From Nitrospinota bacterium (GTDB lineage: Bacteria; UBA8248): a stretch of DNA of 19,259 nucleotides. This document shows positions 1,018-17,629 of the stretch, piece after piece. The notes under the pieces are model-generated. The model saw only the letters and a program-made list of their open reading frames with translations. It was not told the DNA's origin and did not search any database. The position numbers were made by a program, and so were the translations under genes. The DNA lies in contig JAYGFR010000260.1 of NCBI GenBank assembly GCA_046581755.1, positions 1 to 19,259 of the forward strand. The letters run 5' to 3'. How positions within the stretch are numbered: position 1 is the first letter of the stretch; every line of letters starts with the position of its first letter.

Positions 1018-1539
1018 CTACTTCGCCGCCGCCGCGGCTCTTTTCTTCCGGTGCTGAACGGCCTGGAGGACGTCCTGCCAGACGAGGCGGCCGAGCGGTC
1101 CCGAGCTATAGACCGAGATGTTCACCTCGCCCTCGGGGTTGAGCAGGAAGTTCGTGGTGTGGAGATAGGGCCTCGGCTTTCCGTTCGCCTCGGGCGAATA
1201 GAGGGCGCCGGTTAGCTCGGAGATTTTCGCCGGGTCGAGGCTGTGCCCCACCGGGAAATTCACCTTGCTCGCTTCGATGGACTGCAGGGCTTCATTTTCG
1301 GGGTCGGTGGAAGCCGCGATGACCTTGATGCCTTCCGCTTCGATTCTTTCTCCCGCCCGGGAGAATGCCGCGAGCTGCGCGACACAGTAGGGTCACCAGT
1401 GGCTCCGGTAGAAGAGGACGACGCCCCACGAGCCTTTCATGTATTCGGGCAGCGCGATCTTCCCGCCACCGACTTTGTCGATCTCAATTTCGGGGAAAAG
1501 GTCCCCTGTGTCGAGAATCAGATCGTTCACCTTCGGCAT
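1018..1539 (-). CDS. Peroxiredoxin-like (AhpC/TSA, thioredoxin-fold) selenoprotein, copy A; 173 aa with Sec49
   Basis: ATG at 1539 with GGAGG SD. Reads MPKVNDLILDTGDLFPEIEIDKVGGGKIALPEYMKGSWGVVLFYRSHW-TGA(1395-1393)-PYCVAQLAAFSR..., in frame with the track ORF 1018..1263. The TGA occupies the first Cys position of a WCPYC redox motif. Confidence 0.92.
1352..1392 (-). promoter_or_regulatory. Candidate bacterial SECIS stem-loop(s) 3' of the UGA of copy A
   Basis: mRNA after UGA: CCCUACUG-UGUCGCG-CAGCU-CGCGGCA (7-bp stem including one G-U pair, loop starting 16 nt after UGA), followed by UUCUCCC-GGGC-GGGAGAA. Folded by eye only. Confidence 0.5.
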
Positions 1540-1589
1540 AAATGCTTCCTCCAAAATCGAATAACGGCCAGAGGTCCTATTTTACCTGC

Positions 1590-1619
1590 AAAAAGGCCGG
1601 GAGCGCGAAGCCCCCGGCC
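1590..1619 (-). terminator. Intrinsic terminator between the two selenoprotein paralogs
   Basis: Minus strand GGCCGGGGGC-TTCGC-GCTCCCGGCC-TTTTT, starting 24 nt after the stop of copy B. Confidence 0.7.
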
Positions 1620-1642
1620 CATGTTTCGCAAACCCCGCCCGG

Positions 1643-2140
1643 CTAGCTCTGGGCGGCCATCTTCTTATAGAACTGCACGAGGGCGTGTACGTCCTGCCAG
1701 ACGAGGCGCCCGATGGGCCCTGTGCTGTAGACGCCCACCGCGATCGTTCCGTCGGGCTTCAGGACATAGCCCGTGCTGTGGAGGATCTGGCGCTTCTCTT
1801 CATAGAAGCAGCCCGTCAGCTCCGAGATCGCCTTGTTGTCGAGACCATAGCCGACCGGAAATTCCATCCCGCACTCCTCGACGGTCCTTTTTGCCTGCTC
1901 CTCCGTGTCCACGGAGGCTGCAACAACCTTGATACCTTCCTCGGCCAGTTTTGCGGCCCGCGAGAAGGCGGTCAGCTGCTGCTTGCAGTAGGGTCACCAG
2001 TGGCCCCGGTATAAAAGAACCACCCCCCAGCTGCCCGCCAGGTCGCCAGGCAGCGATATCTTGCCGCCTCCGACCTGATCGATCTCGATGTTCGGGAAGG
2101 CCTCTCCCGAATCGAGCATTTTGTCCGTCATGCGTGGCAT
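1643..2140 (-). CDS. Peroxiredoxin-like (AhpC/TSA, thioredoxin-fold) selenoprotein, copy B; 165 aa with Sec49
   Basis: ATG at 2140 with GGAGG SD. Reads MPRMTDKMLDSGEAFPNIEIDQVGGGKISLPGDLAGSWGVVLLYRGHW-TGA(1996-1994)-PYCKQQLTAFSR.... Track ORFs 1994..2212 and 1643..1912 are in the same frame, and the protein is colinear with copy A on both sides of the TGA. Confidence 0.92.
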
Positions 2141-2238
2141 GGAACATCCTCCGTATGGATGAGAACACAACGATCGGCCAGGACCCTCTCGGCTCTCACA
2201 TCGCATATCCAATTTTACGGGATTACCATCAACTGCCC

Positions 2239-2378: not shown

Positions 2379-2654
2379 ATGGGCGAAAAAATACCCTGCG
2401 CGTACAGCAAAATTTTCCCTTGCGATGACTGCAAGCAGGCCGAAAGCGGTTGCGCCCGCGAGGTGGAGCTCACCGAAGAGGACGCCGAGCGCTATCTGCC
2501 CCGCGAGGACCAGAACAACATGATCATCCCCCGGGATTGCCCGATCCCGCCGATGAGCAGCATCATCCGCTACGGGCCCGATTATTATGTGGTCAAGGCG
2601 GGCCGGGTCATCAGAAAAGAATTCGAGCGCGCCCTCCCGAAATACAAGCAATAA
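2379..2654 (+). CDS. Hypothetical 91-aa protein with C-x7-C-x2-C-x6-C motif
   Basis: GGAG SD, genome-like GC3 codon bias, upstream promoter and natural amino-acid composition. No family recognised. Confidence 0.75.
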   Translation: MGEKIPCAYSKIFPCDDCKQAESGCAREVELTEEDAERYLPREDQNNMIIPRDCPIPPMSSIIRYGPDYYVVKAGRVIRKEFERALPKYKQ

Positions 2655-14251: not shown

Positions 14252-17200
14252 GTGCAGTGTCCTCTGTGCCGGCATGAAAACCCCGCGCACGCGAAATTCT
14301 GCCTCGAATGCGGCACGAGCCTCGCGCTGATTTGCGCCAGTTGCGGAACGGACCTTCCTCCGGGCTCGAAATTTTGCCTCGAATGCGGCCACCGGCTGGC
14401 CGTGCCGGGAGTTCCCTCCGCCCCCGAACCGTCTCCATATGCCTCCCCAGAGACCTACACCCCCAAATACCTGGCCGAGCGCATCCTCACCTCCAAAACA
14501 TCTCTCGAAGGCGAGCGCAAACAGGTGCCCCTCCTCTTCGCCGACCTCAAGGGTTCGATGGAGATGCTGGGCGACCGGGACCCGGAGGAGGCCCGGGCGC
14601 TTTTAGATAATGTCCTCACCCGCATGATGGAGGCCGTCCATCGCTACGAGGGCACGGTCAATCAGGTGATGGGGGACGAGATCATGGCCCTTTGCGGCGC
14701 GCCGTTGGCCTTAGAGGACCACGCGCTCAGGGCGTGCTACGCGGCGCTCGCCATCCAGAGCGCCATGAAAACTTACGCCGAGGAAGCCCGGCGGGAGCAC
14801 GGGGTCACGGTTCAGACGCGAGCGGGCATGAACTCGGGCGAGGTCGTGGTGCGCACCATCGGCTCCGACCTCCGGATGGACTACACCGCCGTGGGCCAGA
14901 CGGTGAACCTCGCCGCCCGGATGGAGCAGATCGCGCCCCCGGGCAGCATCTACCTCACGGCGGACACGCTGAGGTTTGCCGAAGGGTTTGTACAGGTCGA
15001 TCCCCTCGGCCCGGTGCCCATCAAGGGGATGAGCGAGACGGTCGAGGTGTTCGAGCTAAAGGGCGCGGCCTCGGGCAGGACGCGCTTTCAGGCCACAGCG
15101 GCGGGCGGGCTAACCAAGTTTGTGGGCCGCCGGAATGAGCTCGATGACCTTCAAAGCGCTCTCGATAAGGCGGGCGAGGGTCGCGGCCAGATATTCGCGA
15201 CGGTCGCCGAGGCGGGTGTGGGCAAGTCGCGCCTCTACTGGGAGTTCATCCACTCCCCCCGGACGAAGGACTGGCTCATCGTCGAGAGCGGCTCGCTCTC
15301 CTACAGCAAGGCTTCGGCCTACAAGCCCGTCATCGACCTGCTCAAGGCCTATTTCGCGATTGAGGACACGGACGACCATCGCCGCATCCGCGAAAAAGTC
15401 ACGGGTAAAATCCTGACGCTCGACGAATCGCTCACGCCGGCGATACCACCCGTTCTCTCACTTCTCGAAGTCCCGATTGAGGATGAGGGCTGGAACAACC
15501 TCGACCCGGCCCAGCGGCGACAGCGGATGCTCGAAGGGGTAAAGGGCCTGATGCTCAGGGAAGCCAAGGTCCAGCCTCTTTGTCTCGTGTTCGAGGACCT
15601 TCACTGGATCGACACCGAAACGCAGGCGCTTCTGGACTCGATGGTGGAGAGCCTTCCGGGAGTGCGGGTGCTCCTTTTGGTCAACTACCGGCCCGAGTAC
15701 GAGCACGGCTGGGCGAACAAGAGCTATTACACACGTCTCCGCCTCGACCCGCTCTCCTCCGAGGGCTCGGATGAGCTTCTGGCCGCCATTCTCGGCGGGG
15801 ATTCCGATTTATACCCGCTCAAGACGCTCTTAATTGAGCGCACGCAGGGCAACCCGTTTTATCTCGAAGAATCCGTCCAGACGCTCGTCGAGAGCGGGGC
15901 GCTCGCGGGTGGTCCGGGAGCCTACAAACTGACCGAGGAGGTCTCCAAGATCGAAGTTCCCTCGACGGTTCAGGCCATCCTCGCCGCCTGGATCGACCGC
16001 CTACCGCTCGAGGATAAGCGGCTTCTTCAGGCCGCCTCGGTCATCGGGACGCATGTGCCATATCCCCTCCTTTCGGCCATCGCCGGGATGTCCGAGGAGG
16101 AATTGCACCGGGGTCTTTCGTCCCTTCAGGCATCGGAATTCATTTATGAGACGAATCTCTTCCCGGAGCGGGAGTTCACCTTCAAGCACGCCCTGACGCA
16201 TGAGGTGACATACGGAGGTCTCGTCCAGGAGAGGAAGCGCGGACTTCACGGCGCAATCGTTGAGGCCATTGAGAGAATGGAAGGCGACCAGCCCGATGAG
16301 CAGGTGGAACGTCTCGCCCAACACGCATACGAGGGGCAGGTGTGGGACAAGGCGCTCATTTACTTGCAGCGGGCAGGCTCCAAAGCTAGGAAACAATCGG
16401 CACATCAGGATGCAACCAGGAACCTGGAACATGCGTTAAATGCTCTCAAGAATCTCCCCGAGAGCCGTGAAGCGGTTGAACAATCGATCGATATTCGTTT
16501 GGCGCTCCGTGCATCGCTCCATGGGCTCGGAGAGTTCGAGCGTACGATTGATCATCTTCGAGATGCCGAAACCCTCGCCAAGGATTTGGACGATCCTCAT
16601 CGGCTTGGGCAAGTTTACAGCTATATGACGAATTATTTTAGCCGGACCGGAAAACCCGACCACGCCATTGATATGGCCCGACGCGCGTTGGCTCTCAATC
16701 AACCTCTCGGTGATCTCTCGATCGAAATTCCGGCCAGTTATTATTTGGCTGGCGCCCTTCTCAGTAAGGGGGAATATGCCCGGGCGAAGGAGGGATTTAT
16801 TCGGAACATCGCTCTCGTGACAGGGGAGTTGGTCTATGAACGTTTTCGGTTATCGGGTCTTCAATCCGTGATCGCCCGCACTTGGCTGGTTTGGTGCCTG
16901 GCCGAGCGAGGGGAATTCGATGAGGGTATGGGGTATGCGAAAGATGCGATACGGATTGCCGAGGAGTCTGATGAGCCGTTCAGCCTGGCGGCTTCAATCT
17001 TCGGGGCGGGTTTTCTTCTCCTCCGCAGGGGGCAAATCACCGAGTCCTTATCTGTCTTGGAACGAAGCCTTGAGGTCTGCCGTACGGCGAGCATCGGCAT
17101 ATGACTGCCCTGGGTAGCATCGAATACCGGGTTTGCCCATGTTCTTTCCGGACGTGTATCGGAGGGTTTACCGTTCATGCAGCAGGCAATAGAGAAGTCT

Positions 17201-17629
17201 GAATCAATGGGTCTTATGTGTCATTTCTCGCTGCGGGTGGCGAATTTAAGCAGGACCCACCTTTTGGCTGGAAAGGTGGGAGAAGCAATCCCGCTCGCCC
17301 ACCGTGCTTTGGACCTTTCCCGCGAGCACAAGGAACGTGGGCACGAAGCCTGGGCCCTCCGCCTTCTCGGCGAAATCCACTCCCACCCCGAAGCCCTTGA
17401 CCCCAAAAAGGCCGAGGACCACTACCGCCAAGCTCTCGCGTTGGCCGAGGAGCTCGGTATGCGGCCGTTAACAGCCCACTGCCGGAAGGGCCTTGGCGCG
17501 CTCTACGGGCGGACCGGGCGGGAAGAGAAGGCCCGCGCTGAACTTACGACGGCAATAGATATGTACCGCGAGATGGAGATGACCTGCTGGCTGGAGAAAG
17601 CCGAGACGGCGCTGGCCGGGGCGGGGTAG
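14252..17629 (+). pseudogene. Double zinc ribbon-class III adenylate/guanylate cyclase-AAA ATPase-TPR protein, interrupted by in-frame TGA at 17102-17104
   Basis: CPLC/CLEC/CASC/CLEC ribbons; cyclase motifs FADLKGS, MGD, TVNLAARMEQ; P-loop AEAGVGKS; Walker B FEDLHW; FKHALTHEVTY; TPR-like helices. The frame stays open from 17105 (LPWVASNTGFAHVLSGRVSEGLPF) into track ORF 17177..17629. TATAAT and GGAGG lie upstream of the GTG start. Confidence 0.8.
14292..14389 (+). repeat. Two 23-bp near-identical direct repeats encoding the duplicated zinc-ribbon motif KFCLECG
   Basis: CGAAATTCTGCCTCGAATGCGGC (14292-14314) and CGAAATTTTGCCTCGAATGCGGC (14367-14389), one mismatch, 75-bp period. Confidence 0.85.

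Follow-up and report, generated by a model that had tools for sequence, protein, structure and literature searches.

The DNA analysed here (the window, 19,259 nt in length, from a Nitrospinota bacterium) carries two adjacent genes on the minus strand, designated copy A and copy B. Copy A extends from an ATG at 2140 to a TAG at 1643 and encodes a 165-aa redoxin of the AhpC/TSA family (PF00578) with the predicted motif U49-P-Y-C52. Copy B, running from an ATG at 1539 to a TAG at 1018, encodes a paralogue of 173 aa, for which U49-P-Y-C52 is predicted in the window as well. An in-frame TGA, a predicted selenocysteine (Sec) codon, forms codon 49 of both genes (1994..1996 in copy A and 1393..1395 in copy B, minus strand), and GGAGG ribosome-binding sites are located 7 nt 5′ of the ATG of copy A (2148..2152, minus strand) and 8 nt 5′ of that of copy B (1548..1552, minus strand). 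This arrangement agrees with an earlier sequence-only reading of the same DNA, which had described two adjacent minus-strand genes, each with a GGAGG and a TGA at codon 49. It had also described the proteins as alignable before and after the TGA, and an identity of 56% over 162 columns was indeed obtained, extending to both sides of this codon. When translated with table 11, the genes yield C-terminal fragments only (1643-1912 for A and 1018-1263 for B).

Both TGAs are embedded in an identical context of 19 nt, as had been claimed, and this 19-mer occurs exactly twice in the 4.2-Mb genome, both times at the pair. It stops one base short of the third position of codon 52, this codon being TGC in A and TGT in B (1384..1386, minus strand). 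The identity of the 19 nt is not kept in related genomes, where synonymous changes are found at Pro50 and Tyr51. Since the relatives vary synonymously within it, the shared context was discarded both as a signal and as a trace of recent gene conversion. Independent contigs from two different studies contain both TGAs and the TGT unchanged. The contig of one study covers 900-2161 and differs from the window only at 1030, 1039, and 1507, and that of the second study covers 1353-2002 with one difference, at 1507. Contigs from RNA libraries overlap parts of both genes, which says nothing on transcription or its level.

Between the copies, a terminator-like hairpin with a T run is located at 1590..1620 (minus strand; −27.2 kcal mol−1, z −1.46). 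A long hairpin 3′ of copy A, often with a T run, is found in 28 of 33 loci when the first 75 nt are folded, and copy B may therefore be transcribed separately from A or at a lower level. A consensus scan returned no promoter upstream of either gene, nor was the intergenic hairpin among its entries.

The gap between the copies varies among relatives. In genus g8 (L032 and L062-L079), a TAACAT hexamer, often after TG, was seen by eye between the hairpin and the start of B, and it might resemble what a copy-B promoter could look like. The three loci of genus g4 (L043, L044, and L045; approximately 2.1 Mb, AT-rich third positions) have a gap of 24 nt without a hairpin, given which the pair may form one transcript there; all three have kept a copy B with TGA at codon 52 as well (UxxU). 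At G019:C101:2131-5973, approximately 3 kb separate copy B from a partial copy A, compared with 24-228 nt elsewhere.

Divergent from copy A, an ORF for a Cys-containing protein of 91 aa (2379-2654, plus strand) was noted, which has no Pfam match and only Atlas matches of 0.80 or lower. Its homologues make up 35 distinct rows with 47-82% identity (one being the window's own, 100%) and stand beside the pair in related loci. As the most constant neighbour, the 91-aa protein could be a partner of the pair; no redox partner is conserved among the flanking genes in the seven loci inspected. Elsewhere in the window, a cyclase/AAA/TPR gene (14252-17104, plus strand) ends in a TGA (17102-17104) that is in frame with a TPR ORF at 17177-17629, the frame being open between them. 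This TGA would rather be a nonsense change or an error than a Sec codon. At the contig edge (1-492, minus strand), an ORF at 214-492 matches PF24838 (8xMP) and runs into a frame that presumably resembles a transposase start.

Decoding of UGA49

The genome, which is 96.5% complete, encodes selA (569.8 bits), selB (374.7), selD (335.4), and tRNA-Sec (73.8), each above its cut-off, and its selD has one TGA of its own. RF2 is encoded in the genome, and UGA is therefore otherwise a stop. One tRNA with a TCA anticodon scores as tRNA-Sec, and one tRNA-Cys(GCA) and one tRNA-Trp(CCA) were found.

For comparison, near-full-length genes were extracted from fetched loci labelled Nitrospinota, Nitrospinae, or Tectomicrobia, with either Cys or TGA permitted at position 49. 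All 81 related genes extracted have TGA at this position and intact frames behind it, which goes beyond chance, as the sequence-only reading had argued from the two copies. Partial or frameshifted genes were left out; for copy B, these were the genes of G044 and G053 (each UxxC), and for copy A those of G012, G016, and G019. Across the phylum, a match at an E-value of 1e-20 or better was obtained in 47 of 51 genomes.

Among the 120 database matches listed, 93 begin at positions 53-77, just past the TGA, one has no column 49, and 26 are full length. Column 49 of the latter is Cys in 23, Trp in two, and Ser in one, and CxxC is present in 120 of the 135 distant representatives that cover the motif (best 150 of 1928). 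Cys homologues had been anticipated by the sequence-only reading, which had also held that Trp or another non-Cys residue at this column would speak against Sec. Among the full-length matches, such residues occur in the three proteins mentioned, and one of the two Trp proteins agrees with the TGA gene of a relative at each of the remaining 160 positions, so that its Trp49 most likely is a translation choice. Together with the Sec machinery, the Cys homologues, and a published family (discussed below), this bears out the proposed assignment to a recognised class of UxxC peroxiredoxin-like (Prx-like) selenoproteins. The truncated matches correspond to the fragments that had been predicted from standard pipelines, and a 48-aa product ending at Trp48 is also present as an entry among the distant representatives (best 150 of 1928).

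A rough coding-potential scan of the genome gave many further read-through candidates. With 41 candidates picked by motif and without a family scan, both window genes included, 34 of the 41 have a G-led hairpin at 14-38 nt downstream of the UGA, compared with 35 of 145 unpicked candidates. Most SECIS-like loops in the genome lie 15-25 nt after the UGA. Many paralogous read-through candidates were noticed on contigs C208, C358, C202, C226, and others of G000, and in most of them the UGA is followed at 16-25 nt by a G-led hairpin. Named by motif, we take six of them to carry a GFULL motif, about ten to be AhpD-like CxxU proteins, and several to be of UGSC-type and PrdB-like.

From the conservation of the codon and the gene content of the genome, it is highly likely that both UGA49 codons are decoded as Sec. 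Both genes are thus very likely selenoproteins that pipelines cut in two, and the Sec call corrects two split gene models. A decoding of UGA49 as Cys or Trp, which would require an altered genetic code or a tRNA of the SelC* type, is very improbable. The accessible part of PMC13582414 does report that tRNA-ReC, which reads UGA as Cys, is enriched in genomes with UxxU hydrogenases, and Trp does occur at column 49 in two of the 120 database matches listed. However, the lone tRNA with a TCA anticodon scores as tRNA-Sec next to a single tRNA-Cys(GCA) and a single tRNA-Trp(CCA), RF2 is present, and one of the Trp records matches a TGA gene at all other sites; Trp in particular was rejected on these grounds. 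Pseudogenes or assembly errors with a nonsense codon in the active site have a negligible probability, for although other lone in-frame TGAs occur in the assembly (e.g., in the window's cyclase/TPR gene), the independent contigs agree and the pseudogene reading is refuted by TGA49 in 81 of 81 relatives with intact frames.

Codon 52 and the hairpins of copy B

At codon 52, the two genes behave differently. All 36 copy-A genes extracted from the family are UxxC, whereas copy B, likewise in 36 family genes, has TGA (UxxU) in 20, TGC in 15, and TGT in one, which is the gene of the window. Copy B is UxxU in all four same-genus genomes, and it reads UPYU in L093. The order A then B is found in 33 of 33 loci holding both genes. 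A quick protein tree, for which positions 49 and 52 were masked, served as the protein phylogeny (its G030 row is a frameshifted second record) and separated a single B clade (SH-aLRT 99) from a single A clade (91), with seven genera represented. Neither clade takes in the genes extracted from eight genomes outside the family, all of which are UxxC. The constant order across seven genera and the single copies outside the family support the old duplication that the sequence-only reading had proposed. Its addition that Sec was retained in both copies holds for Sec49, but the copies are not equivalent, and B appears to have lost a second Sec.

On a careful copy-B DNA tree, for which codons 49 and 52 were masked, the gene of the window falls into a clade of six genes (97/96) of which the other five are UxxU, and the early branches of the larger groups enclosing this clade are UxxU, too. 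Because codon 52 is TGA in the five nearest relatives, the TGT of the window is interpreted as a Sec-to-Cys loss. With high probability, as far as can be judged from these sequences, the window's copy B lost Sec52 and descends from UxxU ancestors. Codon 52 changed its state at least 8 times on this tree, a count to which the meeting of the long branches g3 and g4 may add one change, and a topology that unites all UxxU genes in one clade is rejected (p-AU 1.7e-60). The change counts give no direction, and in genus g8 losses and regains of Sec52 are equally parsimonious on the copy-B tree.

Two hairpins follow these codons in copy B. Hairpin 1 (1368..1382, minus strand) has a 5-bp stem with compensatory changes and a loop 15 nt after UGA49, and it is a candidate for the ancestral SECIS of codon 49. 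Hairpin 2 (1348..1365, minus strand) has a 7-bp stem and a GGGC loop, spans codons 59-64, and is a predicted SECIS. Among 93 degenerate codons with a conserved amino acid in 33 copy-B genes, just 6 are written with the same codon in at least 97% of the genes, and these six are the consecutive codons 59-64, i.e., hairpin 2. Its 18 nt are exact in 31 genes and differ by one loop change in two UxxC genes, and this freezing holds even at a GC3 of 0.23-0.30. Of the 36 B genes, 33 retain the complete stem, among them all 20 with UxxU, and the hairpin is absent from three early-branching UxxC genes (g3 and g7). Its loop follows UGA49 at a distance of 34 nt and codon 52 at one of 25 nt, its folding energy is −9.8 kcal mol−1, and its dimensions lie within the four SECIS constraints quoted in the available text of PMC13188914 (loop of 4 nt, stem of 7 bp, GG first, spacing of 16-37). 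As hairpin 2 is invariant, it has zero covariation, and its role rests on the synonymous freezing and its position, which make it very probably a SECIS. Single-sequence folding downstream of each UGA gave z-scores of −0.03 to −0.99, none of them significant. A metagenome scan with hairpin 2 returned at least 120 matches, among which 15 represent the copy B gene, 12 being UxxU and 3 UxxC. One of these 3 has the TGT of the window, in a record that is possibly not independent of it.

We lean towards hairpin 2 serving both codons, 49 and 52, because it is frozen in three UxxC clades (2.9 synonymous-variable codons expected within it, 0 seen, P about 0.04) and because the nearer loop of hairpin 1 is without G in three g4 UxxU genes; in the window, neither of the first two positions of this loop is a G. 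For codon 49, the 34 nt would be a long spacing compared with the 15-25 nt usual in this genome. Such usual spacing would suit an arrangement with one SECIS per codon, in which hairpin 1 reads UGA49, hairpin 2 reads codon 52 only, and the latter is a relic in the window genome. Several further observations fit this arrangement. Hairpin 1 has 12 cells changed on both sides, with 0 of 500 shuffles as high, a control slide of +3 scoring higher on one covariation measure (0.152 vs. 0.122). In the single-copy outgroups and copy A of genus g4, the best hairpin loop lies at 16 nt, which is the place of hairpin 1, and the sole change seen in hairpin 2 concerns two UxxC genes. The synonymous constancy of hairpin 2 within UxxC clades and the missing Gs in the loop of hairpin 1 argue against it, however, and we consider separate elements for the two codons improbable.

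For copy A, no clear SECIS was found, and the strict test failed. Its only perfect-stem hairpin has the loop at 40 nt (−6.2 kcal mol−1). A looser SECIS test is passed by copy A, but also by 231 of 405 control positions (57%), and it was dropped as evidence because it did not discriminate on the controls. Three candidate folds were considered. The first, a proximal stem, is 90% paired without covariation; the second, at the place of hairpin 2, is 85.6% paired with 10 cells changed on both sides, its structure having been chosen by eye from the same sequences; and the third, of the RNAalifold type, is 93.3% paired, with 24 of 500 shuffles as high on covariation. According to the accessible part of the BSepDB article (PMC13326102), canonical SECIS elements are present in 87.4% of entries, and their absence is therefore not rare.

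The favoured reading, with hairpin 2 shared by both codons, can be extended to a history of the pair, which we regard as probable on the whole. It would begin with an old tandem duplication of a Prx-like redoxin with UGA49 read as Sec, after which copy A would have remained UxxC. The ancestor of copy B would have gained UGA at codon 52 along with hairpin 2. With its loop 15-16 nt after UGA49, the ancestral hairpin would have been just 6-7 nt from codon 52 and thus below the 16-nt minimum of the SECIS model, so that hairpin 2 would have been needed; the loop of hairpin 1 being too near to codon 52, a second element may have arisen with the second UGA. Hairpin 2, in range of both codons, would likely serve both, and several lineages including the window genome would later have reverted codon 52 to Cys with the hairpin kept. 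With slightly less confidence, we suggest that the new two-codon SECIS was required for the second Sec and that, once it was frozen, one-base changes could flip codon 52 between Sec and Cys (at least 8 times), while the twin never flips.

Fold and predicted chemistry

Both copies score above the cut-off of PF00578 (68.6 and 69.0 vs. 26), and no NCBIfam model reaches its cut-off for either protein, the best peroxiredoxin model being at 36 vs. 211. An AlphaFold model of copy B (pLDDT 94.5) has a Prx/BCP-like fold, with BCP/PrxQ and Prx6 peroxiredoxins as best matches. In a profile alignment to Prx6, Arg45 is placed at the Pro and Sec49 at the Thr of PxxxTxxC, and residue 52 at the peroxidatic Cys. 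Thr128 of B and Ser122 of A occupy the column of the presumed catalytic Arg of Prx6; Arg is found there in 4 of the 102 distant representatives covering the column (best 150 of 1928). Neither PxxxT(S)xxC nor the catalytic Arg of canonical peroxiredoxins is thus present, and membership in this group was rejected.

By these comparisons, the proteins have a peroxiredoxin fold in which the peroxide-binding site is missing. Since the Pro, Thr, and Arg of peroxiredoxin catalysis are absent, a thioredoxin-type oxidoreductase is likely. Neither the sequence nor the model, in which the fold begins at the N-terminus, gives evidence of an N-terminal anchor, and the proteins are likely cytoplasmic thiol-disulfide oxidoreductases. 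By analogy with CxxC oxidoreductases, the likeliest course is that Sec49 attacks and Cys52 resolves via a selenenylsulfide. For the chemistry as such, we slightly favour oxidoreductase over peroxidase activity. The proteins could also be atypical peroxidases with residue 52 as the peroxidatic and residue 49 as the resolving one, the invariant Arg45 or Arg151 replacing the catalytic Arg, and Sec52 being a faster peroxidatic residue. The best fold matches would agree with this, as would the alignment of residue 52 with the peroxidatic Cys, where known Sec-peroxiredoxins have Sec in TxxU, and the presence of Arg45 in 135 of the best 150 of 1928 representatives and of Arg151 in 101 of them. However, PxxxT and the catalytic Arg are absent, the NCBIfam peroxiredoxin models stay far under their cut-offs, and Sec is constant at 49 and dispensable at 52, so that such a peroxidase appears rather unlikely.

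Comparison with known systems

The window genes enlarge a family that has been catalogued before, and their lineage was already known to be rich in selenoproteins. Prx-like thiol:disulfide oxidoreductases (PF00578; UxxC or UxxU; 1-2 Sec) are predicted with high confidence in the available portions of PMC13188914 and PMC9312934, and the window proteins share their PF00578 domain and UxxC motif. BSepDB, as far as the accessible text goes, counts three UBA8248 genomes among the ten richest in selenoproteins (PMC13326102), one of which is the L093 isolate, and its sequence files may already hold these genes. In the GOS data (PMC2398784, accessible part), the first entry under the heading 'Prx-like 1' has YRGHWUPYC and a C-terminal YSSGPLGR, motifs shared with the window genes as judged by text search and by eye, without an alignment. 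RGHWU occurs 30 times in the accessible Dataset S1 and WUPYU 0 times in the accessible supplements; the UxxU examples given there fall into 'Prx-like 2'. Within the literature searched, which included few subscription journals and partly covered articles, no tandem UxxC/UxxU pair, changing codon 52, or frozen hairpin is described.

Among other thioredoxin-fold proteins, SelL has two Sec in UxxU with a diselenide bond and is known from aquatic organisms including marine bacteria, according to the available text of PMC2397514. The UxxU form of copy B in relatives (20 of 36) has the motif of SelL, but both window genes are UxxC and the SelL-related NF040769 scores 32.5 against a cut-off of 120, and SelL membership was therefore rejected. 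With peroxiredoxins (BCP/PrxQ, Prx6, AhpC; Sec form TxxU), the window proteins have the fold in common (TM-score up to about 0.8) and residue 52 at the peroxidatic Cys; unlike them, they are without PxxxTxxC and catalytic Arg and have Sec at the Thr position. In TlpA/ResA-type CxxC oxidoreductases, the first position is the nucleophile, as would be expected here by analogy. They are the best single-sequence PDB matches (E 2e-08), yet NF002854 reaches only 34.7 vs. 170, and the anchor is not evident here.

Should the proposed history be true, the pair would offer matched UxxC, UxxU, and reverted enzymes with which the purpose of a diselenide active site could be probed. It would also represent a repeated Sec-to-Cys change in a redoxin; according to the available text of the 2026 review PMC13188914, such changes are rare and concern mainly FdhA and SelD. 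It is the comparison that gives the family its value, for it provides a defined element of 18 nt, matched genes that either have or lack the second UGA, and changes that occurred independently several times, with which both UxxU decoding and Sec-to-Cys change become testable.

The pair would likewise be a natural experiment on the decoding of two UGAs three residues apart. Here, the closest counterpart is found in the UXXU Group 4 [NiFeSe] hydrogenases, which also have two UGAs at a distance of three residues and form a mosaic with Cys versions, and for which one downstream SECIS for both UGAs has been raised as a possibility (PMC13582414, 2026; accessible part). The hydrogenases differ in being unrelated proteins, in having a SECIS common to the one-Sec and two-Sec forms, and in that their Cys forms tend to drop the loop G, as described in the same portion of that article. 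In copy B, by contrast, a new frozen hairpin would have arrived with the second UGA and stayed after the UGA was lost.
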